Shown here in pieces: positions 6,607-38,913 of a DNA stretch of 53,515 bases (position 1 is its first letter; each line of letters begins with the position of its first letter). The notes beneath the pieces were generated by a model. The model was not told where the DNA came from and made no database searches. It was given only the letters and a program-made list of their open reading frames with translations. Source of the stretch: Patescibacteria group bacterium (lineage in GTDB: Bacteria > Patescibacteriota > Microgenomatia > UBA10105 > UBA927). The DNA lies in NCBI GenBank assembly GCA_038062895.1, contig JBBTWJ010000003.1:186254-239768 (forward strand), written 5' to 3'. The translations under genes were made by a program, and so were the position numbers.

Positions 6607-6825
6607 TCACTTCGTTCTATACGTAATTCTTCCTTTGGTCGCGTCGTAGGGTGTCATCTCAAGCTTAACCCGATCGCCCGGCATGATACGGATAAAATGA
6701 ATTCGCATTTTCCCCGATAAATGACAAAGAACAATCCTGCCGTTGGGCAACTTAACCCGAAACAATGTGTTCGGAAGACACTCGGTCACTTCCCCATCTA
6801 CCTCAATGCTTCCTTGATGCACCAT
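6607..6825 (-). CDS. infA: translation initiation factor IF-1
   Basis: 72 aa S1-like fold, ..[19 protein letters not shown]...L.H.SGKMR...I.I..GD.V..E..PYD...GRI..R. Confidence 0.95.
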
Positions 6826-7140: not shown

Positions 7141-7221
7141 CTTAAAAATAACAATTTAGCAAACCGAAAATTAACAAAACGACGTGAACAACACGTAGTA
7201 TATCTTATTAAGTAGCCTTGG

Positions 7222-16152: not shown

Positions 16153-16797
16153 CTAACTCCTTCGGCAGATCCACACTTTTACCCCGATATACCCTGACTT
16201 AGTAAGAGCGGGAGCTATGGCAAAATCTATATCTTCCCGAATCGTCGAAAGCGGAATCGTCCCTGATTGAAACTTTTCGCGTCTGGCAATTTCGGCTCCG
16301 TTTATGCGTCCAGAAAGTCTGATACGCACTCCTTTGGCTCCAGATGAGATAGCCCGTTCTACTGCCTGATTGCAAACCCGCTTATGCGGCATCCGGCGAA
16401 CAAGCTGATCCGCGATGGTATTGGCTACCAACGTAGCATTGAGATTAGGCTCCTTGACCGGCTCAACCGCGATGTCCACTTTCACGCCCTGACCGACCTT
16501 CAGCCGCTTGCTTAAAATGCCCTCTATAAGCTTTTTGAGTATTTCAAGCCCACTGCCGCCCCGACCGATAACCACTCCGGGACGGGAGACGTGCACCGTA
16601 ACTTTGACTTTGTTAATCGACCGTTCGATTTCCACCAGCGCTAGTCCCGCACTTTTGAGCTTCAGGCCTAGTTCGCGCCGGAGGGCAACATCGGCTAACA
16701 ACAACGTGCTGTAGGTCCGGCTGTCGGCATACCACCGCGAGGACCAGTTAAATACCGGGCCGATTCGAAATCCTCTTGGATTAATTTTTTGTCCCAT
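16153..16797 (-). CDS. rpsC: 30S ribosomal protein S3
   Basis: MGQKINPRGFR start (ATG 16797-16795). The ORF-track extension to 16839 reads into a family C repeat. Confidence 0.93.
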   Translation of the reverse strand: MGQKINPRGFRIGPVFNWSSRWYADSRTYSTLLLADVALRRELGLKLKSAGLALVEIERSINKVKVTVHVSRPGVVIGRGGSGLEILKKLIEGILSKRLKVGQGVKVDIAVEPVKEPNLNATLVANTIADQLVRRMPHKRVCNQAVERAISSGAKGVRIRLSGRINGAEIARREKFQSGTIPLSTIREDIDFAIAPALTKSGYIGVKVWICRRS

Positions 16798-16877
16798 GGT
16801 TAAGAGATTAGCACGTGATGAAAAAGACATGATGAACACGTGATCATGTGCTCATCATGTGAACTTCTATCATGTGC
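16798..16877. repeat. word-hairpin, family C
   Basis: GATTAGCACGTGATGAAAAAGACATGATGAACACGTGATCATGTGCTCATCATGTG..ATCATGTGCTCATCC. Confidence 0.7.
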
Positions 16878-17249
16878 TCATCCATGACCTCCTTTAACAG
16901 ACTGACTACGAGAAGTTGCCACCTCATCAGTTAATACCACTCTTATATGTGTCATTCTCTTTTTAAATGCGTGTGCTTGACCTTTCGATACTGCGTGCCA
17001 CCGCTTCATAACCGGACCCGGTAACACTTCGATCGACTTGATCCGAAGCAAAGAAACATCTGCTTTTTTTTCTTTTGCACCGGCAAGTGCTGAAGAAAGC
17101 ACACTACCCAACGGCTCACCCGCACGCTTCGGCAGTGATCCAAGCCGTATAAGGGCAGCCTGCGGCGGCAACCGACGGATTGATCGCGAGACCAACTGCA
17201 CCTTGCGCGGACTCATCCTGACATATTTCGCAACAGCTTGATATTCCAT
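16878..17249 (-). CDS. rplV: 50S ribosomal protein L22
   Basis: A....VR.SPRK...V...IR L22 start. Synteny. Confidence 0.93.
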   Translation of the reverse strand: MEYQAVAKYVRMSPRKVQLVSRSIRRLPPQAALIRLGSLPKRAGEPLGSVLSSALAGAKEKKADVSLLRIKSIEVLPGPVMKRWHAVSKGQAHAFKKRMTHIRVVLTDEVATSRSQSVKGGHG

Positions 17250-17335
17250 AAATTGTTAATTCGTTATTCGTTACTTGGTTACTTCGTAAAAAATATTCAT
17301 GGCTTTCTAATAACAAAGTAACGAACTAACAAAAC
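17250..17335. repeat. word-hairpin, family B
   Basis: GTTAATTCGTTATTCGTTACTTGGTTACTTCGTAA ... AATAACAAAGTAACGAACTAAC. Confidence 0.65.
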
Positions 17336-17620
17336 TTACGTTTTGTCCATCGTCCTCTTCGTCACTTGTCCGTGGCCTCTAAATGTTCGCGTCGGACTAA
17401 ACTCCCCTAACCGGTGACCGATCATGGCCTCGGTCACAAATACTTCGATAAATGTGCGACCGTTATGGACTCCGAACCGGTGCCCGACGAAATCAGGCGA
17501 AATCTGACACGCACGCGACCACGTCTTAATCGGTAGACGATCTCCTCCAGCTTTCTGGCGATTGACCTTTGCCAGAACTCTCGGATCTATGTATGGACCT
17601 TTTTTAGAACTTCTTGCCAT
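17336..17620 (-). CDS. rpsS: 30S ribosomal protein S19
   Basis: [11 protein letters not shown] typical S19. Confidence 0.95.
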
Positions 17621-24642: not shown

Positions 24643-24843
24643 TTAAACCACTTCGTATCCGGATGCGCGGACTGTTTTAAAAATTGTCACTTCCATGACT
24701 TTCTTCTCATCATATTCCACCTCAAGCGTCTCCTTCACATAACTACATACGGCTTTCACGCCCGCATCCTCGAGGTCGCTTTCGATGAGGAGCGAGCAGC
24801 TGGTGCAGTGCATGCCGAGGACTTTGTATGTTGTTTTTATCAT
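24643..24843 (-). CDS. copZ: heavy-metal-associated (HMA) domain copper chaperone, CopZ-like
   Basis: 66 aa with GMHCTSC (MxCxxC) metal-binding loop. Confidence 0.85.
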   Translation of the reverse strand: MIKTTYKVLGMHCTSCSLLIESDLEDAGVKAVCSYVKETLEVEYDEKKVMEVTIFKTVRASGYEVV

Positions 24844-24941: not shown

Positions 24942-26009
24942 TTACGGTATAACCGTAAATGATCCCGTATACATCCCCATGGAGCAAGCGTAGGCAAGCA
25001 GGCCGGTCTTCTTGGGCGTAAAAACAAGTTCTTCTTCCCCATTCACCGGTAAAATTTTGGAAATTCCTAAACCCGGGATGGTAAATGCGCGGGCGCAGCC
25101 ATTGGCTTGGTCGGAAATGAGTTTCAGTTTGACCGGAATCCCTGCTTTGACGGTTGTGCTGTCTGCCGTATACCCATTGCTTTTGACGGTGATCGTCACC
25201 CGCTGAAGCCCATCGTTTGCCACACCTGCAACCGAACCTGATTTTGCAAGGGCTAACTCATCAACGTTTGACGTCGCGGCTCTATATATATTCGTAAGTG
25301 TATAAAATGATCCCGTGAGTCCGATACCGCCGTTTATCGAATAGAGGGCAAACACAGCAACGACTGTGGCAGCAGCATAGGAAAACAATTTATTTTTCAG
25401 AAGCGTCATGAGGGCGGCTCCAAGAAAGAAAAAAATGGGACTGGTACCTAAAATAAATGACCCCATGACCGCTGCCCCAAGCCAAGGACTACCGCTGGCC
25501 ACTGCTACTGCCATCGTCGCCTGGGTGACCCCGCAGGGCATGAGAACGGTAAAAAATCCGAGCGCTAAGGGGGCAAAGGCAGATTCGTCACGGCTTACCC
25601 GGCGGAGAAGTTTAAATGCCCACCGGGGCGGGGATATCACAAAATAGCGGAATATCGGATGAAGATTGGCGATGCGTGCGGCTGTTACCAACATAAAAAG
25701 ACCGGCCCCAATCTGCACGAACCCCATGATCACGGGAGACAACACAAGCGTCGAACCAATCATGCCCAAAAGAAATCCAAGGATGGTGTGCGCGACCAGC
25801 TTAGCGCCAAGAAACATACCAATAGTGCGAAAACTCACTGATTTACTGCTTGAACCATCAATAAGCCCGGTTTCCGTCGTTTGAGATACGGAGGAAACGA
25901 GTAACCCGCCTTGCACCGCGAGACATGATATGCCTCCCGTGGTCAGTCCCGTCAAAAATGCCAGCCAAATCGTTTGCATAAAGTAATGCTGTTCATTGTA
26001 TACCATCAT
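24942..26009 (-). CDS. permease (DsbD_2/TauE-like, GGISCLAVQGG and MPCG motifs) fused to C-terminal cupredoxin-like domain, putative Cu handling or efflux
   Basis: Multi-TM N-terminal part. The C-terminus (..VKAGIPVKLKL....CARAF.IPG.....L..G......TP.K.G...YACSMGMY) resembles the cupredoxin-like domain seen next to copA genes. Start uncertain (26009, 25979 or ORF-track 26075); 26075 would overlap the divergent promoter. Confidence 0.7.
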   Translation of the reverse strand: MMVYNEQHYFMQTIWLAFLTGLTTGGISCLAVQGGLLVSSVSQTTETGLIDGSSSKSVSFRTIGMFLGAKLVAHTILGFLLGMIGSTLVLSPVIMGFVQIGAGLFMLVTAARIANLHPIFRYFVISPPRWAFKLLRRVSRDESAFAPLALGFFTVLMPCGVTQATMAVAVASGSPWLGAAVMGSFILGTSPIFFFLGAALMTLLKNKLFSYAAATVVAVFALYSINGGIGLTGSFYTLTNIYRAATSNVDELALAKSGSVAGVANDGLQRVTITVKSNGYTADSTTVKAGIPVKLKLISDQANGCARAFTIPGLGISKILPVNGEEELVFTPKKTGLLAYACSMGMYTGSFTVIP

Positions 26010-26068
26010 AATTACATAAGGCCACCCCTTGCAAACGCCAAGGGAGTGGCCTTTAACACAACACATAC

Positions 26069-26097
26069 TTGACACAATGCTCCCGTTTTGATATTTT
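26069..26097 (+). promoter_or_regulatory. sigma70-like promoter of the csoR-copA operon (TTGACA-N17-TATTTT)
   Basis: -35 at 26069-26074, 17-nt spacer, -10 at 26092-26097. Immediately followed by the operator. Confidence 0.55.
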
Positions 26098-26263: not shown

Positions 26264-26545
26264 ATGCCAAAAGGAATGCCGAGAGATCAATCAATTGAAC
26301 GCACCATACTCCACCGTCTAAAAATCGCGCGTGGACATTTGGAAAAAGTCATTACCATGGTTGAGGAAGGCCACTACTGCATCGATGTGGTCCACCAATC
26401 CATGGCCATCCAGGCGGCGCTGCGGGAAGCGGATCATCTGATACTCAAAAATCATATGGAAACATGTGTGGCTGACTCGATCAGAAAAGGCGAAAGCCGC
26501 GAGGTGATAGATGAAGTGATGAAGATAATGGAGAAAAAAGGTTAG
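26264..26545 (+). CDS. csoR: CsoR/RcnR-family metal-sensing transcriptional repressor
   Basis: 93 aa, L.RLKRI.GH......M......C.D...Q.......L layout with Cys/His/Cys ligand positions (..YCIDV..Q, ..H.ETC). Confidence 0.88.
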   Translation: MPKGMPRDQSIERTILHRLKIARGHLEKVITMVEEGHYCIDVVHQSMAIQAALREADHLILKNHMETCVADSIRKGESREVIDEVMKIMEKKG

Positions 26546-26577
26546 TTGGTTAGTTCGTTACTTAGTTACTTTGTTAA

Positions 26578-26973
26578 TTGGTTAATTTGTACGAGAAAAT
26601 TATGGATAAAATTATTGTTACTATTACCGGACTTTTTTCAATGGCGGGAATATATTGGTTTTTCTTTGGGAAAAAGTCCCGCGAAACGGGATCCCGCTCC
26701 GCGGAAGAGGATGCAAAAGATTCCTGGACGATAACCGTGGATGGCGGATACAAACCGAATATCATTAGAATTCCTAAAGACAAACCGGCAACACTGACAT
26801 TCATCCGTAACGATGCCAATAGTTGTCTGGAGGAAGTCGTTTTTCCGGATTATAAAATAAAAAAATATCTTCCACTGAACAAAGAGGTGATCATTACGCT
26901 CCCCTCTCCACACAAAAAATCCGGATTCCATTGCGGGATGTCTATGTTCCAAGGAAGAATCGAAACAACGTAA
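26578..26973 (+). CDS. membrane-anchored cupredoxin-like domain protein
   Basis: N-terminal TM helix, then ITVDGGYKPN.I.IPKDKP..L.F.R.D...C......P.......LP........P.....G.HCGMSM. Start may be the internal MDKII. Confidence 0.7.
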   Translation: MVNLYEKIMDKIIVTITGLFSMAGIYWFFFGKKSRETGSRSAEEDAKDSWTITVDGGYKPNIIRIPKDKPATLTFIRNDANSCLEEVVFPDYKIKKYLPLNKEVIITLPSPHKKSGFHCGMSMFQGRIETT

Positions 26974-27011
26974 AGGAATTTAGAGGAGTTTAAAGGATTT
27001 TAGAGGAATTT
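26974..27011. repeat. period-10 word repeat, family H (GGAATTTAGA GGAGTTTAAA GGATTTTAGA GGAATTT), supplies the copA SD-like GAGGA
   Basis: Exact 10-nt phasing. Related to 8038-8075. Confidence 0.65.
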
Positions 27012-29273
27012 ATGCCCAATACAAAAATTTCTTTCCCTATCATCGGCATGCATTGCGCGAGTTGCGCGCGGCTCATCGAAAAAAAACTACAAAAAACACC
27101 GGGGGTGACGGATGCGATGGTCAATTACGGGAGCGAACAAGCGTCGGTCGAGTTTGATGAGACGTCCTGTTCTTTAGATGCAATCGGAAAAGCAGTAGAA
27201 GATATAGGGTATCAAGCGATACTCTCACCGAAAGAAAAATTCAGCGAAGCCGGATCTGGCCCCACCATGACACCAGATGAACTCAAAGAAGAAGCAAAAA
27301 AGAAAGAGCTCGTGGATTTAAAACGGAAGGTTATCATCTCCGGCATCTTGAGTGCATTGATTATGATTGGAAGCTTCCCGGAATGGTTTGGGATCTTCAT
27401 GTCGCCATACGTTCTGCTTCTGCTCACTATCCCCGTCCAATTCTGGGCAGGGTGGGGATTTTATCAAGCAACGTGGTCGGGACTCAAAAACCGAGCCGCC
27501 GGCATGGATACGCTCATCGCAATCGGCACGAGCGCTGCATTCGGATTTTCCGTTCTCACCACATTTTTTGAAATGCAACTGCGCGTTGCCGGATTTCCGA
27601 TCATTATGTATTACGACACAGCTGCCGTCATCATTGCGCTCATCCTCCTTGGCCGCTATCTGGAAGCGAAAGCCAAAGCACATACCAGTGACGCAATTAA
27701 AAAACTTCTGCATCTGCAGGCCAAAACCGCCCGCGTCGTCCGGGATGGACAAGAAGTCGATATACCTATTGAAGAAGTCAAAACGGGCGACACAATCCGC
27801 GTCCGACCGGGAGAAAAGATTCCCGTCGATGGAAAAATCTCTGACGGATCATCAAGCGTCGATGAGTCCATGGTGACGGGCGAGTCCATGCCGGTTGACA
27901 AAAAAATAGGCGATCCCGTCATTGGGGCGACCATCAATAAAACCGGTACGTTCCTGTTTTTGGCGACAAAAGTAGGAAGCGACACGATGCTGGCTCAAAT
28001 TGTCACGATGGTCGCCCAGGCACAAAGCTCGCGTGCGCCAATTGCCCGGCTTGCCGATGTCATCTCTTCTTACTTCGTACCCATCGTCCTCATGCTTGCC
28101 GCCGCGACCTTCGTCATATGGTACGACTTTGGCTCATTCGCTCAAGCATTTACCAATATGATCGCCGTCCTGATCATAGCGTGCCCCTGCGCGCTGGGGC
28201 TTGCGACCCCCACAGCTATCATGGTCGGAACCGGACGGGGTGCCGAACGCGGAATCCTCATCAAAGACGCCCAAGCTCTAGAGATTGCCCATAAAACAAA
28301 AGTCGCCGTCTTTGATAAAACCGGGACGCTTACCCGAGGAGAACCAAAAGTCACGGATGTAGTATTTGCGGATGCAATCAAAAATATCAATCAGATAAAA
28401 GCGGCAATTGCCGCCGTTGAGGCAAACTCTGAGCATCCGTTGTCCCGGGCCATCATTATGTCTGAAATTTTCAAAAGGGTAAACCTTAAAAGGGTACAGG
28501 ATTTAACCTTAAAAAACTTCTCCGCGATCGAGGGTTTCGGCGTCAAGGGAAACGTCAATGATCTCCCCATACTCGTCGGGAACAAAAAACTCATGGAGAG
28601 AGAAGGCGTGACGCACAGCGCAGAGTTGGATAAGAAAGCCGATGAATGGATGCATCAAGGTAAGACCCTCGCATACGTCTCTGTTAAAGAAAAAAACGTA
28701 GCTCTCATCGCTATCGCCGATACGATCAAAACTGAAGCCAAAGAAATGGTCTCATCCCTCAAAAAAATGGGGGTTGCTGTATGGATGATCACCGGGGACA
28801 ACGAAGTGACCGCCCGGGCAATAGCCAAACAAGCAGGGATTGATAACATCCTTGCCGGGGTATTGCCGCAGGAAAAAGCGGAAAAGATTAAAGCATTAAA
28901 AAGTGGCAATACCACTGTTGCGTTTGCAGGTGATGGAATTAATGACGCGCCAGCCTTGGCTGCAGCCGACGTCGGAATAGCGATGGGAACAGGCACCGAC
29001 GTGGCAATAGAATCAGCGGGTATTACTTTACTCAATAAAGATTTGAGAAGTGTCGTGACGGCCGTAAATCTCTCCCGCGTAACCCTGGGCGTCATCAAAC
29101 AAAATCTTTTCTGGGCATTTGGCTATAACGTCATCCTCATCCCCGTGGCCATGGGGGTGCTCTACCCCATCTGGGGATTGCTTCTCAATCCGGCTCTGGC
29201 CGCCTTTGCGATGGCGGCAAGCAGCATATCCGTTGTAGGAAATTCATTACGGTTGAAAGGAGTACACATATGA
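27012..29273 (+). CDS. copA: copper-translocating P1B-type ATPase
   Basis: N-terminal HMA GMHCASC, TGES, CPC ([13 protein letters not shown]), [15 protein letters not shown]. Confidence 0.96.
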
Positions 29274-29415
29274 CCAGGTAGTAGAATTTCGACACGCTTT
29301 TCACTTTGCCCGTGTCGTTTTGAGACTCCTGGGTTGCAGCAATTAAAATTTATAAAGAAAGGACGTTGAGATTTCGAAAAGCGTAAAGGCAAAGGTCGAA
29401 ATTTCACTACCTGGT
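29270..29415 (+). mobile_element. family D element, subfamily c, plus-strand orientation
   Basis: ATGACCAGGTAGTAGAATTTCGAC...TCGAAATTTCACTACCTGGT-ATG. Its 5' ATG overlaps the copA TGA (ATGA). The interior matches 9417-9561 read on the sense strand. Confidence 0.7.
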
Positions 29416-29913
29416 ATGAACAGTGATACAAAAATAATCATTGGGGTGATAGTCGCAAGTATCGCCATCATTGGAGCCGCCGTATTCTTGCTCGGTAATG
29501 ACAAAAGTCCCAAACGCGAAACGCTTGGGATTGCGTCCATGACGATAGATAAAACATTTGAGGATTTTGGCGATATGAAGTCTACTGAAGAAAAAACTGC
29601 ACTATTCACAATCACCAATACGAGCGATGCAATTTTGCGTATTTGGAGTGTATCCACAAGCTGCAACTGTACGTTCGCAAGCGTGATAATTGGTGGTGTA
29701 GCGAGTGGCGAATTTAACATGCCCGCCCATATGATCGCGGCTCTCAAAAACTGGATTGGCGAAGTGCCGGCTAAACAAACGGCAACACTCAAGGTCACCT
29801 ATAAACCAAACATTATGCCGGTGATCGGAGTGGTGACACGGCAAACTCGATTCTCGACAAACGATCCAAAAAATGCGGAAGTAGAAGTGTCGGTAAAAGC
29901 AAATGTATTGTAA
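29416..29913 (+). CDS. membrane-anchored DUF1573-like protein (STSCNCT motif)
   Basis: N-terminal TM helix. F.I.N.....L.I..V..SC.CT pattern recalled for DUF1573. Confidence 0.6.
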   Translation: MNSDTKIIIGVIVASIAIIGAAVFLLGNDKSPKRETLGIASMTIDKTFEDFGDMKSTEEKTALFTITNTSDAILRIWSVSTSCNCTFASVIIGGVASGEFNMPAHMIAALKNWIGEVPAKQTATLKVTYKPNIMPVIGVVTRQTRFSTNDPKNAEVEVSVKANVL

Positions 29914-29997
29914 TCCGACCAATCCGGACCAATAACCCAATGAATGAACAAATGAATAAATTGGTCGGATTGGTAAATTGGTATTTATTGGTCGGAT
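29914..29997. repeat. word-hairpin, family I (AATCCGACCAAT / ATTGGTCGGATT)
   Basis: Arms are reverse complements. Related one-armed TACCAAT/CCAATAA word runs occur at 22325-22365 and 24505-24530. Confidence 0.6.
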
Positions 29998-30849
29998 TTG
30001 CCTATGGATAGCATGACAATCTTTCAGAGCATCTCTCTCATAACAGCATTCGCGGGAGGCATGGTGGCGCTCTTCGCCCCTTGTTGCATCACGTATCTGT
30101 TGCCGAGCTACTTGGCTAATATATTCCGTAACCGCGAAAAAGTCGTATGGATGACCATCATCTTTGGTCTGGGGATCGCCACCATTCTCGTGCCAACGGC
30201 ATTAGGGATCAGAGCCGTGGGACAAGTGTTCCAGAAATATCATACTCAAACGTACATCGTGGGCGGGGCATTCATGATCCTGTTGGGCCTCATGGAACTT
30301 ACCGGACGGAAAATTACAATCCCCATGATTCACCTGACGATTGACCTGAACCGCCGGCACGATCCATGGAGCGTCTATCTCATGGGAGTCTTCTCCGGTA
30401 TCACCTCCTCCTGCTGCACGCCGGTCTTGGCAGGCATTCTCACGCTAAGTTTTCTTTCTCCGACCTTTCTTTGGGCGGGGCTTGCCGGTATCTCGTATGT
30501 ATTTGGTATGATCGTCCCCCTCGTCGTCTTAGCCCTACTCCTCGAAAAAATAAACTGGACCAAGTTCCCCCAATGGAAAAACAAAACAATCCTCATAGCC
30601 GGAAAGCATGTGCTGATTACTGACGCCGCAGCGGGCGTTCTCTTTATCTTGGTTGGCATCACGTTTACGATCCTGGCATTAACCGGCAACATTACCATGG
30701 GACAAATCCAACCCTTGGAACAAATGATGGGCGCAAATGTCGTAAACATCGTACGCACGCTTCGCGCTATTCCCGGAAGCGAAATCATATTTACCGTGCT
30801 ATTCGTCATCAGTATTGGAGTATTTATTTTTAAAAGGAGGAAATCATGA
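29998..30849 (+). CDS. polytopic membrane protein, CcdA/DsbD_2-like, with two intramembrane vicinal Cys pairs (APCCITY, SSCCTPV)
   Basis: ~6-8 TM segments. CC pairs replace the single Cys of CcdA. TTG start at 29998 or ATG at 30004. Confidence 0.65.
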   Translation: MPMDSMTIFQSISLITAFAGGMVALFAPCCITYLLPSYLANIFRNREKVVWMTIIFGLGIATILVPTALGIRAVGQVFQKYHTQTYIVGGAFMILLGLMELTGRKITIPMIHLTIDLNRRHDPWSVYLMGVFSGITSSCCTPVLAGILTLSFLSPTFLWAGLAGISYVFGMIVPLVVLALLLEKINWTKFPQWKNKTILIAGKHVLITDAAAGVLFILVGITFTILALTGNITMGQIQPLEQMMGANVVNIVRTLRAIPGSEIIFTVLFVISIGVFIFKRRKS

Positions 30850-32078
30850 AAAAACGGTCTACTTCATTGAGTAAGGCTCTTACTAAATTACCACACAAAA
30901 ACATTTTGATATTTTTTATTTTCGTTTGTATGACGCTCATAGCGTTTAACCTCGGGAGAAATGAAACGCTATTGCGACAACTTATCGCAAATCCTTTGAG
31001 CCTACTCCAGCAATCAAAAGACACCATATCTGCCAAAGAATTAAAAAAGCTTCTGATAAAAAAAGACTTTGTCTTCATCAATGTCCACACGCCGTATGAA
31101 GGAGAAATCGAAAAAACAGACACGTTTATCGCCTATGATCAGGTCGTCGCACAGAGTAGCTCGTTACCAAAGGATAAAAACGCCAGCATCATCCTGTACT
31201 GCAAAAGTGGCCGGATGAGCGCGGAAGCGTTGCTTACGGTGCGCAAATTAGGCTACTCCAATGTCCGGCACCTATCCGGCGGCATGGATACGTGGGTGAA
31301 GTCAGGCGGGAAACTTCTGGATCTTTCTTTGGTCGAGGGAGAGGTGCTTCCCCAGAGTGGTGTAGAGCTTCCCGTGGTGTGGAGTGACATAGGCCCGCGG
31401 CTTATCGCCCTTGGCGTCATCGACGAAGCGAAATTCAGAAAGGCGGTAAACCTCACGCCGGAGCAAGAAGAAATTCTCACCCGCGGATCGGACAAAAAAA
31501 TGGTAATTAACAGCGCAAACGGTCAATTCGTCGTGGATATACTTTGGGCATTGGGACTTGCTCAAAAAAGCATCGTCTACGAGGAAGGACCGATGGGTAA
31601 AGAATATAAGAAGGAGGCAGGAAATTTCGCCTCTACCGGGGGATGGAGTTTGGCGCGCGGCAACGCGATGGCGTATCTCAACCGCTTTGACCTCATCCCT
31701 CTCACTCCCGAACAGCAAAAAAAGGTCGGTGATATAGCCCAAAACATTTACCGCCCCTGCTGCGGCAACTCTACCTGGTTTCCCGACTGCAACCATGGCA
31801 TGGCGGCCTTAGCGGCTATAGAACTCATGGTGTCGGTGGGGCTAGATGAAAAAACAATTTACCGCAACGTATTAGCACTCAATTCGTATTGGTTCAGCGA
31901 TACGTACGTGACCATTGCCACACATTTTGCCAGAACAGGAATTGCATGGAAAGACGTCGACGCGAAAACCGTCTTGGGCAAAGACTACTCGAGTGCCCAG
32001 GGGGCACAGGCAATTACCAAAAAAGTGGGTCCGCTCCCCTATAAACCGCAACAACAAGGCGGAGGATGTGGAGCCTAG
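30846..32078 (+). CDS. membrane-anchored rhodanese-domain protein with uncharacterised Cys-rich C-terminal domain (PCCGNSTWFPDCNHGMAA)
   Basis: Rhodanese active-site loop CKSGRMS. ATGA overlap with the upstream gene. The C-terminal ~240 aa are not recognised. Confidence 0.7.
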   Translation: MKKRSTSLSKALTKLPHKNILIFFIFVCMTLIAFNLGRNETLLRQLIANPLSLLQQSKDTISAKELKKLLIKKDFVFINVHTPYEGEIEKTDTFIAYDQVVAQSSSLPKDKNASIILYCKSGRMSAEALLTVRKLGYSNVRHLSGGMDTWVKSGGKLLDLSLVEGEVLPQSGVELPVVWSDIGPRLIALGVIDEAKFRKAVNLTPEQEEILTRGSDKKMVINSANGQFVVDILWALGLAQKSIVYEEGPMGKEYKKEAGNFASTGGWSLARGNAMAYLNRFDLIPLTPEQQKKVGDIAQNIYRPCCGNSTWFPDCNHGMAALAAIELMVSVGLDEKTIYRNVLALNSYWFSDTYVTIATHFARTGIAWKDVDAKTVLGKDYSSAQGAQAITKKVGPLPYKPQQQGGGCGA

Positions 32079-32092
32079 ACAAATAATAAATC

Positions 32093-32269
32093 ATGAAAAA
32101 ATGGCTGTTACCGATAGTATGCGCGCTTCCTCTCATCGGAGTTGCCCTCTGGTTTATCGCCGGAAAAAACGTGGGCAATCTCCTAACCTTTGGTCTTATT
32201 CTTGCCTGTCCATTATCGCATATATTTTTGATGAAGCATGGTAATAAGAAAGAAAAACATATACACTAG
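32093..32269 (+). CDS. small membrane protein, DUF2933-like (LACPLSHIFLMKHG), below the ORF-track cutoff
   Basis: Manual translation MKKWLLPIVCALPLIGVALWFIAGKNVGNLLTFGLILACPLSHIFLMKHGNKKEKHIH*. The CP(L)xH..H motif is recalled from metal-resistance loci. Confidence 0.5.
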   Translation: MKKWLLPIVCALPLIGVALWFIAGKNVGNLLTFGLILACPLSHIFLMKHGNKKEKHIH

Positions 32270-32289
32270 TTTCTAGTGTGAGCCCTCCT

Positions 32290-32405
32290 GGCCTTGCTTC
32301 TCGCCTTACCCCCGCCATGGCGGGGCGCGGCTCGAAGAGCGGTCTTAGGCGGACATAAGAAACGCTAAGCCGCTCCGCCAGCTGGCGGATTGGCAAGCGT
32401 TTCTA
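32290..32405 (+). ncRNA. GC-rich structured element upstream of 32422 (candidate cis-regulatory leader, class unknown)
   Basis: Hairpins CCCCGCC-AT-GGCGGGG. Long imperfect stem AGAAACGCT..GCC..CCGCC-AGCT-GGCGG..GGC..AGCGTTTCT ending 6 nt before the GGAGGTG SD. Alternative pairing GGCGGA/TCCGCC. Confidence 0.3.
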
Positions 32406-32421
32406 ATGGAGGTGATAACGC

Positions 32422-32697
32422 ATGAAACATGATCCAATGGCAACCGCCAACGCAATGGCAGTCACCGTTGCGTTTATCGCGGTCATCTGTACACTCGCTA
32501 TCATTCTCGCACCGGAAGTATCCATGGGGATAGCCCAATCCTGGTTTCACGGAATTGATTTGAGCAAAGTACGCGCCGTCGTTAATCCGTCTTTAGGCTC
32601 TCTCGTCTATGGATGGACGACCGCGACAATCGGCGGATGGGTAGCAGGCTACACGTTTGCCAACGTCTACAACTGGTTTGCGCCTAAAAAGAAATAA
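32422..32697 (+). CDS. small two-TM membrane protein (hypothetical)
   Basis: 91-aa ORF with GGAGGTG SD 7 nt upstream. C-terminal G.W.A....GGW.AG..FA..YNWF. Confidence 0.55.
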   Translation: MKHDPMATANAMAVTVAFIAVICTLAIILAPEVSMGIAQSWFHGIDLSKVRAVVNPSLGSLVYGWTTATIGGWVAGYTFANVYNWFAPKKK

Positions 32698-36491: not shown

Positions 36492-37061
36492 GTGAAAAAT
36501 ATGAAAAAAGAAATCATCATTGCCGGTATTGTTGTTTTGGTTCTTATTGGGGGAGGTTGGTATATTGCCAACCAACAGTCTCAACAAGCCCAACAAGTAA
36601 AAATGGCACAGGAAAAAGCTGCTATGAAAGCCAAAGAAGATGCGGCAATGGAAGAAAAAAAGGACAAAGAAGCGATGGAAAAGAAAAACGCCGTGATGGA
36701 GAAAACGAATGACGGTAAGATAATGGATAAAAACGCAAGTTCTCGCTATGTCCCGTATTCAAAAGCTATGTACGACGCAGCTTCGAGTAAACGACGAGTC
36801 TTATACTTTTACGCAACGTGGTGCCCATCATGTAAAATAGCGAACTCAGACTTTACCGCAAACCCAAGTAAAATACCTGAAGATGTAATCGTCTTGAGGG
36901 TGAATTACAATGATCCGGATACGGATCAGGATGAGAAGGGTCTTGCCAAAAAATATGGCATCACCTACCAACATACCTTTGTCCAAGTGGATAATACAGA
37001 TAAGGAAATGAGCAAGTGGAATGGTGGACAAACAGATGAACTTTTAACAAACGCTAAGTAG
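36492..37061 (+). CDS. membrane-anchored thioredoxin-like protein
   Basis: N-terminal TM helix, K/E/M-rich linker, FYATWCPSCK (WCxxC). Confidence 0.78.
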   Translation: MKNMKKEIIIAGIVVLVLIGGGWYIANQQSQQAQQVKMAQEKAAMKAKEDAAMEEKKDKEAMEKKNAVMEKTNDGKIMDKNASSRYVPYSKAMYDAASSKRRVLYFYATWCPSCKIANSDFTANPSKIPEDVIVLRVNYNDPDTDQDEKGLAKKYGITYQHTFVQVDNTDKEMSKWNGGQTDELLTNAK

Positions 37062-37131: not shown

Positions 37132-38913
37132 ATGATATTACTGGTCGCATTTTCGTTTTTTGGCGGTATCGTCACGATCCTTTCTCCGTGTATTTTGCCT
37201 ATCCTACCTATCGTGCTGTCCGGCTCGATAACCGGAGGAAAACATCGGCCGTGGGGGGTCATAATGGGATTCATCGCGAGTTTTACCTTTTTCACACTAT
37301 TCCTTTCGGTAATTGTAAAAGCGACAAACATCTCAGCCGATTTGCTCCGGACTTTTTCTATAGTCATCATCGCAGGATTTGGTCTATCCCTCATCATTCC
37401 ATCGTTACGGGTGATGACGGAAAACTTATTTTCCAAACTAAGCCAAAAACTGGATTCCCGCCTTCGCGGGAATGACAAACATGGGGGCGGGAACGACAAT
37501 TTTTCTACCCGCTCTGATTTTGCTGCCGGACTTCTCGTTGGTTTGAGCTTGGGACTCCTCTGGACACCATGCGTCGGACCGATCCTTGCTTCGATCATTA
37601 CTCTTGCCGCAGCAAGCAAAGTCACCACGGATGCAGTATTCATCACTCTTGCGTATGCAGCAGGCACTGCTCTTCCACTTCTGGCAATAACATATGGCGG
37701 GCGAAGTCTCCTGACTAAAAACCCGTGGCTTGTGGCCAATACCAACCGTATTCAAAAAGGATTTGGGGTCCTGATGATACTTACCGCCATAGCTATTTAC
37801 TTCCAGGTAGATCGCACGTTCCAATCATATATACTGAATACATTCCCCTCTTATGGTGTGGGCTTAACAAAATTCGAGGATAACACAACGATAAAAAATG
37901 CATTACAACAGTTACAAAATCCGTCAGTAAGAAAAGAACCATCTATGGTAAATAAATTTTTGGAATCAGACCTGGGAAATGCACCAGAACTCATCCTCGG
38001 TGGGGTATGGTTTAATGTACCTTCCGGTCAACAATCTCTGAGTATCAAAAGTCTTCGAGGACAAGTAGTGCTCATCGACTTTTGGACGTATACGTGCATC
38101 AATTGTATTCGAACACTTCCCTACCTCAAATCGTGGCATGACAAGTATAAAGACAAAGGACTGACTATCATCGGCATTCACACGCCCGAGTTTGAATTTG
38201 AAAAAAATCCGGATAACGTGTCACGCGCAATCCGCGACTTTGGTATCACCTATCCGGTGATGCAGGACAATGATTTTGCCACTTGGAACGCATATGCAAA
38301 TCACTATTGGCCGGCCAAATACTTGGTCGATAAAAACGGAAAAATCCGCTATACACACTTCGGTGAAGGAGACTATGACGAGACGGAGACAAAAATTCAG
38401 GAACTGTTAAAAGAGTCCGGCACACTCACCCAGGAAATGCCGGTGGACAATCCGACGTACCAAATCCAGGCCCGGACACCGGAAACGTACTTAGGCAACT
38501 GGCGGATAGCCAACATCGCATCGCCTGAACGCATACGACAAGACGTGCTGACCAGCTACTCCATTCCCGGAAATCTCTCTGGAAATTCTTTCGCATTCGG
38601 TGGCGCATGGACCGTGGGGTATGAGTACGCCCGGCCAACGACTGGCGGAAAACTCTCTTTCCGCTTCGATGCAAAAGACGTCTTTCTCGTCATGCGACCC
38701 ACAACACAAGGGGTAACGGGCAGTTTCCGCGTGCTTCTGGACGGAAAATCCGTAAGCGTCGATATTGCCGGTGAAGACGTACGAGATGGAGTCGTGCATG
38801 TCGATCGCGACCGGCTCTATACACTTATCAAACTTACCAGTGGGGGCGAGCACACGTTGGAACTGCAATTTCTCGACGGCAATAATGAACTGTACGCATT
38901 TACGTTTGGTTGA
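37132..38913 (+). CDS. DipZ-like fusion: CcdA-type membrane domain + TlpA/redoxin-like thioredoxin domain (CINC) + C-terminal beta-rich domain
   Basis: LSPCILPILP and WTPCVGPIL CcdA motifs. FWTYTCINCIRTLPYL. The architecture matches mycobacterial DipZ as recalled. Confidence 0.8.
   Translation: MILLVAFSFFGGIVTILSPCILPILPIVLSGSITGGKHRPWGVIMGFIASFTFFTLFLSVIVKATNISADLLRTFSIVIIAGFGLSLIIPSLRVMTENLFSKLSQKLDSRLRGNDKHGGGNDNFSTRSDFAAGLLVGLSLGLLWTPCVGPILASIITLAAASKVTTDAVFITLAYAAGTALPLLAITYGGRSLLTKNPWLVANTNRIQKGFGVLMILTAIAIYFQVDRTFQSYILNTFPSYGVGLTKFEDNTTIKNALQQLQNPSVRKEPSMVNKFLESDLGNAPELILGGVWFNVPSGQQSLSIKSLRGQVVLIDFWTYTCINCIRTLPYLKSWHDKYKDKGLTIIGIHTPEFEFEKNPDNVSRAIRDFGITYPVMQDNDFATWNAYANHYWPAKYLVDKNGKIRYTHFGEGDYDETETKIQELLKESGTLTQEMPVDNPTYQIQARTPETYLGNWRIANIASPERIRQDVLTSYSIPGNLSGNSFAFGGAWTVGYEYARPTTGGKLSFRFDAKDVFLVMRPTTQGVTGSFRVLLDGKSVSVDIAGEDVRDGVVHVDRDRLYTLIKLTSGGEHTLELQFLDGNNELYAFTFG
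37450..37476. repeat. REP-like palindrome (family R) inserted in-frame inside the DipZ-like CDS
   Basis: CTGGATTCCCGCCTTCGCGGGAATGAC is translated as LDSRLRGND within a loop of the CcdA domain. Confidence 0.8.

Follow-up and report, generated by a model that had tools for sequence, protein, structure and literature searches.

A conserved domain without known relative in a probable envelope copper-defence module of Patescibacteria

We analysed a DNA stretch of 53,515 nucleotides (the window) from an ultra-small groundwater member of the Patescibacteria with a genome of 1.2 Mb, the closest protein matches of which were from Candidatus Gottesmanbacteria (82% identity). A co-directional run of genes on its plus strand (26264-32697) starts with csoR (26264-26545), continues with the copper ATPase gene copA (27012-29273) and contains, on the same strand, a trio of genes for a DUF1573 protein (165 aa, 29416-29913), a CcdA/DsbD_TM-type permease with vicinal Cys pairs (CC-CcdA; 283 aa, 29998-30849) and a rhodanese fusion protein (410 aa, 30846-32078), whose C-terminal part (residues 160-410) is referred to as the domain. 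The original prediction, made from the sequence of the window, regarded the trio as apparently co-transcribed with copA and as a system that handles or relays a thiophilic metal. All three reading frames were open at the predicted positions, and the comparison of gene neighbourhoods across genomes revealed a strong linkage. Our results indicate that the trio is a real, conserved variant of the copper-responsive envelope thiol systems and that it includes a domain without known relative. It is probably an undescribed envelope copper-defence module; the literature that we searched did not describe the trio, the CC-type CcdA or the domain. The link of the module to copper is much firmer than the relay mechanism proposed below.

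The rhodanese fusion protein has a positively charged N-terminus followed by an anchor helix (residues 18-38), which points to an outside location. Its predicted composition, a rhodanese domain with a CKSGRMS loop fused to a further domain, was borne out. The rhodanese domain (residues ~53-160) matched Pfam (PF00581, E 9e-10) and the PspE model of NCBIfam, and Foldseek searches with an AlphaFold model of the full-length protein (pTM 0.82) retrieved rhodanese structures only, with TM scores of up to 0.86 on the target. The six-residue loop CKSGRMS (residues 119-125) holds the catalytic Cys, C119; the pattern C-x-x-G-x-x-[ST] and the catalytic Cys were present in 119 of 120 close homologues, 96 of which have CK[ST]GRMS. 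Residues 160-410 had no match in Pfam or NCBIfam, Pfam was also blank for 55 domain members, and a search of the domain profile against PDB sequences gave nothing below E 0.4. When the domain was modelled alone, AlphaFold returned a pLDDT of 95.8 and a pTM of 0.93, and Foldseek with this model gave a best E of 3.3 with TM scores <0.2 in the whole PDB and no match in BFVD. The copper proteins CueP, CopC, PCuAC, CusF, Csp and YcnI have solved structures in the PDB, and no sequence or fold similarity to any of them was detected for residues 160-410 by Foldseek against the PDB, by the profile against PDB sequences or by Pfam. The earlier statement that this part of the protein fits no family thus withstood both profile searches and structure prediction. 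As modelled, the C-terminal 250 aa are a real, folded and conserved unit.

The segment PCCGNSTWFPDCNHGMAA of the fusion protein holds C305, C306, C315 and H317, and the C-terminal GGGCGA holds C408. In an alignment of 69 diverse sequences, W234, G237, R303-P-C-C306, N308, D314-C-N-H-G318 and the tail residue C408 were invariant; when 55 sequences of greater diversity, most of them stand-alone, were aligned separately, the tail Cys was only near-invariant. C408 is the third residue from the end in close homologues and lies in a Gly-rich tail, which is probably flexible because its pLDDT is low. CAAX-like processing of the tail Cys was considered, since ICMT-like and Rce1-like genes recur nearby, and was rejected: homologues from Burkholderia and others extend long past the Cys. 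The description of the trio as unusually Cys-rich was overstated, as the three proteins have 2, 4 and 6 Cys. What stood of it was the conservation of the Cys motifs; each Cys outside the membrane anchor belongs to a motif conserved at 95-100%.

The domain family comprises 477 clusters at 50% identity and occurs in the genomes of at least 590 species, so that the motifs of the trio are not a matter of chance. Its carriers span many classes of the candidate phyla radiation (CPR, Patescibacteria) and include two DPANN archaea. Among 301 evenly drawn Patescibacteria genomes, 24 (8%) contained the domain, usually in a single copy, which indicates an accessory gene. The domain occurs as an anchored stand-alone protein, in fusion with a rhodanese domain, and in fusion with polytopic membrane domains that bear Cys motifs. 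The two DPANN loci (L029 and L043 in our numbering; Bilamarchaeaceae, Micrarchaeia) encode rhodanese-domain fusions 39-40% identical to that of the window, which suggests transfer between ultra-small bacteria and archaea.

Linkage to copper genes was evaluated in 82 non-redundant loci and in a full-flank subset of 37, each with no less than 5 kb of sequence to either side. Among the 82 loci, copA lay no more than 6 kb from the domain gene in 65%, csoR in 57%, DUF1573 in 63% and CC-CcdA in 50%; the corresponding values for the full-flank loci were 86%, 68%, 76% and 62%. Some copper gene was near the domain gene in 33 of the 37 full-flank loci. The domain and csoR were both present in 17 genomes of the even sample, and in 13 of these the two lay within ~8 kb on one contig (coordinates read by eye); such closeness is expected by chance at ~1.6%, which gives a binomial p of ~1e-20. 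Many loci have the order csoR, DUF1573, membrane partner and domain gene with the pump elsewhere, and csoR directly heads the module in L004, L012-L015, L024, L034, L046 and L056. The window CsoR (Pfam Trns_repr_metal, E 4e-23; RicR-like in NCBIfam) has C39, H64 and C68 in the spacing C-x24-H-x3-C, as read from the sequence, a pattern that we take to be of the Cu(I)-sensing type. Cu(I), Ag(I) and Hg(II) had all been proposed as the metal; Hg(II) is less likely than Cu(I), as the sensors are a C-H-C CsoR and, in other loci, an annotated CueR.

Judged from its sequence, the permease is a true CcdA homologue. It matched DsbD_TM (PF02683, E 2.2e-7; 30.8 bits against a curated cut-off of 27.1) and aligned over residues 11-223 with CcdA of T. 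thermophilus (PDB 5vkv, E 1.1e-7); by homology, its start is probably the ATG at 30013 or 30004 rather than the start of the open reading frame (ORF) at 29998. It carries FAPCC in the first transmembrane helix (TM1; C29/C30) and SSCCTP in TM4 (C139/C140). The two catalytic Cys of 5vkv correspond to C29 and C139 in the alignment, and C30 and C140 are extra. The Pro preceding the second catalytic Cys is replaced by Ser, which makes the protein a CcdA member with a variant motif. All four Cys of the pairs were 95-98% conserved among 42 sequences. The CcdA/DsbD_2-like permease with two vicinal pairs of the original prediction is thus a CcdA relative with CC at the catalytic positions. Since a canonical single-Cys DipZ-like CcdA is encoded in the same island at 37132-38913, the CC-CcdA is an additional, specialised copy.

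The domain was also detected by tblastn on plasmids of Burkholderia contaminans, B. thailandensis and Paraburkholderia fungorum (35-37% identity over 89-97% of the length), where the proteins bear a twin-arginine-type leader (TRRRFL). The gene run of B. contaminans begins with cueR, a pair of small proteins (one is Met-rich), DUF2933, CcdA, a membrane redoxin and a thioredoxin-like protein, and ends with an ICMT-family protein, a peroxiredoxin, a P1B ATPase, the domain protein and an S-adenosylmethionine (SAM) methyltransferase; a DUF411-DsbD-CcdA-TlpA-SCO-cytochrome c block adjoins it. Because this module is headed by cueR, the association with copper extends to a second Cu(I) sensor that is unrelated to CsoR. 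In the Burkholderia locus L089 (NZ_CP090638.1, 2660-3607), the CcdA gene is annotated with a start ~90 nt too far downstream, which cuts off TM1 and the first CC. Read from the upstream in-frame Met, the B. contaminans CcdA is METSIFFGG...FAPCCISVMLP...SSCCAPVLAG and is 42% identical to the window permease (E 1e-49).

With the window permease as the query, CC-type CcdA proteins were also found on plasmids of Rubrobacter, Streptomyces, Microvirga, Ralstonia and P. fungorum, and both CC motifs were identical in the four CC-CcdA plasmid loci examined. A cassette of CC-CcdA, a membrane-anchored redoxin (CQPC) and a small glutaredoxin (Grx)/thioredoxin-like protein (CxFC) is present in Rubrobacter, Streptomyces, Microvirga and Paraburkholderia. 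DUF2933 precedes the cassette in Rubrobacter (directly), P. fungorum and B. contaminans, and lies ~240-280 nt upstream of CC-CcdA in two Burkholderiaceae plasmids. The neighbours of the cassette include CueR, CopC, DUF305, a four-helix-bundle (Csp-like) copper protein or P1B ATPases. A cytoplasmic dithiol donor, CcdA and an outside acceptor with a thioredoxin fold are the standard composition of a reductive pathway. That the cassette has this composition makes the strongest case so far for the CC permease as a carrier of electrons and not of metal.

The DUF1573 protein consists of an N-terminal membrane anchor and an Ig-like domain. The assignment to DUF1573 and the STSCNCT motif, both proposed earlier, were found as expected (PF07610, E 1.8e-10; 41.1 bits, cut-off 26.1), although the match extends only over the first half of the 98-position profile (2-57). 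STSCNCT contains the only two Cys of the protein, C83 and C85, and the CxC was 100% conserved in 54 sequences. A sequence search found no solved structural relative. Exchange between selenocysteine and Cys is typical of redox-active sites. Against the OS_HP2 (seleno)protein model the window protein scored weakly and below threshold. PMC9312934 lists selenoproteins of the DUF1573 family with a UGC motif whose position is not stated.

The partners of the domain are exchangeable. CPR homologues of the cassette redoxin occurred almost only where DUF1573 was absent (DUF1573 only, 27 loci; redoxin only, 9; both, 1; neither, 3; Fisher p 7e-6), and this near mutual exclusivity points to the DUF1573 CxC as a functional stand-in for the redoxin. 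One of four types of membrane partner was encoded within 3 kb of the domain gene in 63 of the 82 loci: CC-CcdA (40 loci), a 175-aa CPLC protein (18), a CPIC/NCCG protein (6) and a fused four-helix (4-TM) GCxxCG protein (2). The alternative partners had no Pfam match. We considered the 4-TM CxxC family as a homologue of CC-CcdA, and a profile-profile probability of 0.9% showed that the two are not homologous. Stand-alone members of the 4-TM family (invariant GCxxCG...LPxGGxE, no Pfam match) lie beside DsbA-like genes in CPR genomes: L066 (17898-18482), L063 (19183-19878), L037 (17825-18376), L062 (11822-12472) and L036 (16369-16947). From this placement, the family may be an undescribed membrane partner of DsbA.

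We propose that the trio, as the distal part of a CsoR-controlled Cu(I) stress operon, is a copper-induced outward thiol relay from CC-CcdA via DUF1573 to the rhodanese fusion, and we give this reading about an even chance. Cu(I) would be exported by CopA. Reducing equivalents would cross the membrane via CC-CcdA, as with its homologues, and would be passed to the anchored DUF1573 protein, whose CxC would act as the CxxC redoxin does in the sister cassettes. The end client would be the surface-anchored rhodanese fusion with its putative Cys3-His centre (RPCC...DCNH) and tail Cys; kept in the reduced state, this centre would take up Cu(I) or act on it at the cell surface, or would protect and repair surface thiols. 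The rhodanese domain may be an optional helper, either as a single-Cys redox partner or as a donor of sulfane sulfur. The proposal is built on the observed family assignments, motif conservation, copper-gene linkage and partner exchange. The role of the permease as an electron conduit is suggested by its homology and the cassette context, and we infer the direction of electron flow, the binding of copper and all of the chemical steps.

Several observations weigh against this relay. csoR was not significantly enriched in domain-carrying genomes (17/24 versus 153/277, p 0.2); significance was reached by the physical linkage only. There was no copper gene nearby in 4 of the 37 full-flank loci, and none within 6 kb in the DPANN loci L029 and L043. 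In the window genome, a promoter-like site in an inserted element (see below) could uncouple the trio from CsoR. Electron transfer of the CcdA type does not need vicinal CC pairs, which the model leaves without explanation, and the membrane partner is replaceable by at least three non-homologous Cys-pair proteins. The relay could also run in the oxidising direction, because the stand-alone 4-TM type adjoins DsbA-like genes. Finally, the invariant Arg, Asp and Asn beside the Cys of the domain, for which the model likewise does not account, look more like an enzyme site than a simple chaperone site. A bolder proposal, which we hold tentatively and at clearly less than an even chance, is that the RPCC...DCNHG domain founds a new fold of outward-facing Cu(I)-handling proteins common to CPR, DPANN and Burkholderiaceae plasmids, in which a Cys3-His centre is fed by a swinging tail Cys and the CC-CcdA that services it adapts thiol transfer to copper or carries the metal.

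The alternative that survives best is a relay of metal, in which the membrane-embedded CC pairs of the permease would bind Cu(I) (or Ag(I)/Hg(II)), move it across or along the membrane and hand it to the DUF1573 CxC and the Cys3-His domain as surface metallochaperones or sinks, comparable to MerT/MerP or to the CPC site of P1B ATPases. The CC pairs do not vary between phyla, occupy exactly the catalytic positions and are suited to soft metals, the sister DsbD_2 permease of the locus is fused to a cupredoxin domain resembling a copper chaperone, and the interchangeable partners, as read from their sequences, all have CPxC or CC within or adjacent to hydrophobic stretches. PMC7785015 quotes a published suggestion that Cu(I) may be bound by proteins of the DsbD/ScsB type. 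The likeness to MerT, MerC and MerP, drawn for MerT and MerC already in the original prediction, is that vicinal or paired Cys in membrane helices hand a soft metal to a partner Cys. It had only the motif behind it and was not supported: there is no sequence relation, the MerT and MerC family profiles of Pfam did not match the permease at E <= 0.01, at which DsbD_TM alone did, the regulators here sense Cu(I), and a mer operon is near only in P. fungorum, at ~9 kb. Moreover, the grouping of CC-CcdA with a redoxin and a cytoplasmic Grx-like protein in the cassette is a signature of thiol-disulfide exchange, and a copper importer under a repressor that opens at high copper would be counter-productive. 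We regard a metal relay as unlikely.

A second alternative is sulfur chemistry, in which the rhodanese domain would load persulfide on the tail Cys or CC of the domain, and the domain would be an extracellular persulfide, polysulfide or thiosulfate enzyme, for example one that traps exported Cu(I) as copper sulfide or detoxifies reactive sulfur. The CK[ST]GRMS loop occurs in most of the 120 close homologues and the catalytic Cys in 119; a rhodanese domain is fused to the domain or to DUF1573, or is encoded adjacently, in L033, L039, L048 and L075; P. fungorum has three genes of the DsrE family at 5 kb from its domain gene, and a gene for a sulfurtransferase is found upstream of the Rubrobacter cassette, at ~5 kb. 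A substrate-binding site is suggested by the invariant Arg, Asp and Asn that adjoin the Cys of the domain. Persulfide as the core chemistry, a part of the original prediction, is nevertheless contradicted by the distribution of rhodanese, which was fused to the domain in only 23 of the 82 loci and within 6 kb of it in only 28; it is absent from about two thirds of the loci and from the Burkholderia islands and hence cannot be the core activity. The window CsoR has the copper-type C-H-C pattern and not that of the persulfide-sensing CstR. Sulfur chemistry as the main function is improbable.

It is still less probable that the module supplies copper, that is, inserts Cu(I) leaving CopA into extracytoplasmic cuproproteins such as the cupredoxins of the locus, in the manner of Sco, PCuAC or CopA2. 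Cupredoxin_1 genes are constant neighbours of the domain gene, SCO, TlpA and cytochrome c genes occur in the Burkholderia islands, and copper-limited Nitrososphaera induces genes of the DsbD family (PMC7785015). However, regulation by CsoR or CueR and the linkage to CopZ point to a response to excess copper, and the patchy occurrence (8% of Patescibacteria genomes) and the location on plasmids elsewhere are typical of resistance islands, not of housekeeping maturation. General thiol-redox housekeeping of the envelope without a tie to copper, in which the linkage would reflect a shared accessory island, is very improbable; VKOR, DsbA, the anchored thioredoxin and the DipZ-like fusion are encoded within the same 16-kb island, but the linkage persists across phyla, under two copper sensors and in minimal operons of csoR and the module.

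By analogy, the functionally nearest known system is Scs with CueP (ScsB/ScsC/ScsD) of Salmonella, Proteus and Caulobacter (PMC10907172, PMC6827279). It is likewise copper-induced under a Cu(I) sensor, and a DsbD-superfamily protein feeds outward Cys proteins that bind Cu(I) or keep CueP reduced. The trio cannot be counted as an Scs system, because Pfam and NCBIfam detected no thioredoxin-fold domain in it and the permease is a bare CcdA. In place of the ScsC/ScsD thioredoxin fold and the three-domain ScsB it has an Ig-like DUF1573 CxC and a minimal CC-CcdA, the soluble parts of Scs have no homologues in it, its end client had no Foldseek match to any PDB chain, and its host has a single membrane. 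The CcdA pathways that serve ResA, CcsX, TlpA or Etrx (5vkv) share a homologous permease with aligned catalytic Cys and, in other phyla, the arrangement of donor, CcdA and redoxin. They differ in that the trio permease doubles each catalytic Cys, a doubling invariant across phyla, and in that CC-CcdA occurs in copper islands and not in loci for cytochrome c maturation; no cytochrome c gene is near the trio in the window. PspE, the periplasmic single-domain rhodanese of E. coli, is similarly outward-facing and has a six-residue C-x-x-G-R-x-S loop, whereas the window rhodanese is membrane-anchored and fused to a 250-aa Cys/His domain. Clusters of merR/cueR, copA, cupredoxin, DUF2933 and ICMT genes with uncharacterised accessory genes have been published for marine Gammaproteobacteria (PMC8478169). 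They share with the module the copper pump, cupredoxin and DUF2933, as well as ICMT, which occurs in relatives of the module and in Burkholderia, but lack DUF1573, CC-CcdA and the domain.

Two minus-strand genes diverge from csoR in the window. One encodes a 66-aa copZ-like HMA copper chaperone (24643-24843, MHCTSC), an ORF whose ortholog in L002 is HMA by PF00403, and the other a DsbD_2 permease with a C-terminal cupredoxin_1 fusion (24942-26075, C...CSMGM; Pfam E 1e-21 and 6e-11, respectively). The fusion gene forms an operon with copZ, and the same gene pair is present in L002, L014, L015, L019, L025 and L028. A consensus scan found a promoter-like TTGACA-17-TATTTT 5' of csoR on the plus strand (26069-26097; 10/12 plus TG, a pattern match only). 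Between csoR and copA lies a plus-strand gene for a membrane-anchored cupredoxin_1 protein of 131 aa (26578-26973, C...CGMSM; Pfam E 1.5e-14), as also in L001, L002, L007, L010 and L016. Both cupredoxin_1 domains of the window thus bear a C...C-x-M-x-M motif, CSMGM in the fusion and CGMSM in the anchored protein, and in motif only it presumably resembles the binuclear Cu(I) site of the pneumococcal chaperone CupA. CopA was recognised as a P1B-type Cu(I) ATPase from its ORF and motifs (HMA GMHCASC, membrane CPC), and its orthologs in L001 and L002 are HMA, E1-E2_ATPase and Hydrolase proteins by Pfam. The trio is followed on the plus strand by a DUF2933 mini membrane protein (32093-32269), for which a profile match (Pfam E 4e-5) agreed with the earlier assignment, and by the final gene of the run, a DUF5676 protein with two TM helices (32422-32697; Pfam E 1e-15); in 22-27% of loci a DUF5676 gene is no more than 6 kb away from the domain gene. 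Downstream of the run are crp, VKOR and a DsbA-like gene, and an anchored thioredoxin (36492-37061) precedes the DipZ-like CcdA-redoxin-Thioredoxin_10 fusion (37132-38913), which has canonical single Cys (SPCILP, TPCVGP). The island thus has three DsbD-clan permeases in total (DsbD_2-cupredoxin, CC-CcdA and DipZ-like).

The gene run has been interrupted by small repeats. A 141-nt foldback element with 21-nt inverted ends (29274-29414) is flanked by the direct repeat TATGA at 29269-29273 and 29415-29419; its ends had 11 matches in the window against 0 expected, and 42 matches, mostly to the ends, were found genome-wide, of which ~7 cover most of the length. An inverted repeat of a different family, a small palindrome with ~30 full or partial matches elsewhere in the genome, occupies the DUF1573/permease junction (29914-29997). 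Both insertions sit exactly at gene junctions that are 4-nt overlaps in relatives: in L002, copA and DUF1573 overlap at 6674/6671 and DUF1573 and the permease at 7171/7168, and the latter junction is a 4-nt overlap in L001 as well. The ATGA overlap between the permease and the rhodanese fusion is intact in the window. An ATGA at 29270-29273, where the copA TGA overlaps what had been called a relic ATG, is indeed present; because the repeat flanks the element, this ATG is one of the two TATGA copies. The TATGA repeat recreates the stop codon of copA and the start codon of DUF1573, and excision of the element together with one TATGA would restore the ATGA overlap as in L002, in support of the earlier suggestion that the two genes were coupled before the insertion. 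A consensus scan found the promoter-like pattern TTGAGA-18-TAAAAT inside the element (29320-29349), from which the trio might also be transcribed in the window genome. A scan of the run from csoR to the trio found no plus-strand terminator-like site between genes; the sole such site, a weak one, is within the permease gene.

Several further genes recur near the module. A class I SAM methyltransferase gene adjoins the domain gene on all three Burkholderiaceae plasmids, L089 (9868-10482), L090 (9922-10488) and L091 (8069-8686); the plasmid proteins have a conserved C-terminal C-x-S-G-G-C-H-L-N-R-P, and the sole CPR counterpart found, in L067, is weak. ICMT-family methyltransferases are encoded in L002 (10238-10900), L036, L062, L064, L071 and L077 and in the Burkholderia locus L089 (4589-5248), and those of Burkholderia and of the CPR copper loci match each other at E 1e-39 to 1e-51. 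In a distant homologue, P0189 (L086, 820-2631), the domain is fused to a BNR/Ycf48-like repeat region. An unannotated gene at 16470-17372 in the SCO-TlpA-CcdA operon of L089 has DG(x)xxW-type repeats, as read by eye. In Nitrososphaera, copper limitation induces a 'sialidase-like' gene together with dsbD (PMC7785015).

Cupredoxin, DUF2933 and ICMT were already known as accessories of copA (PMC8478169). New are the presence of the domain and CC-CcdA in cultured Burkholderia under CueR, the cross-phylum cassette, the near mutual exclusivity of DUF1573 and the redoxin, and the linkage statistics from an even sample of genomes. The domain and CC-CcdA are on Burkholderia and Paraburkholderia plasmids and the cassette is on plasmids of Streptomyces, Rubrobacter and Microvirga, so that the hypothesis can be tested by ordinary genetics and biochemistry without CPR cultures. 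Most of what is understood of envelope copper defence comes from a few Proteobacteria and Firmicutes. The module would add to it an uncharacterised, highly conserved domain without structural relative and a distinct lineage of CcdA with doubled catalytic Cys, which the examined loci place in no fewer than four bacterial phyla, and it would give DUF1573 a first testable role.

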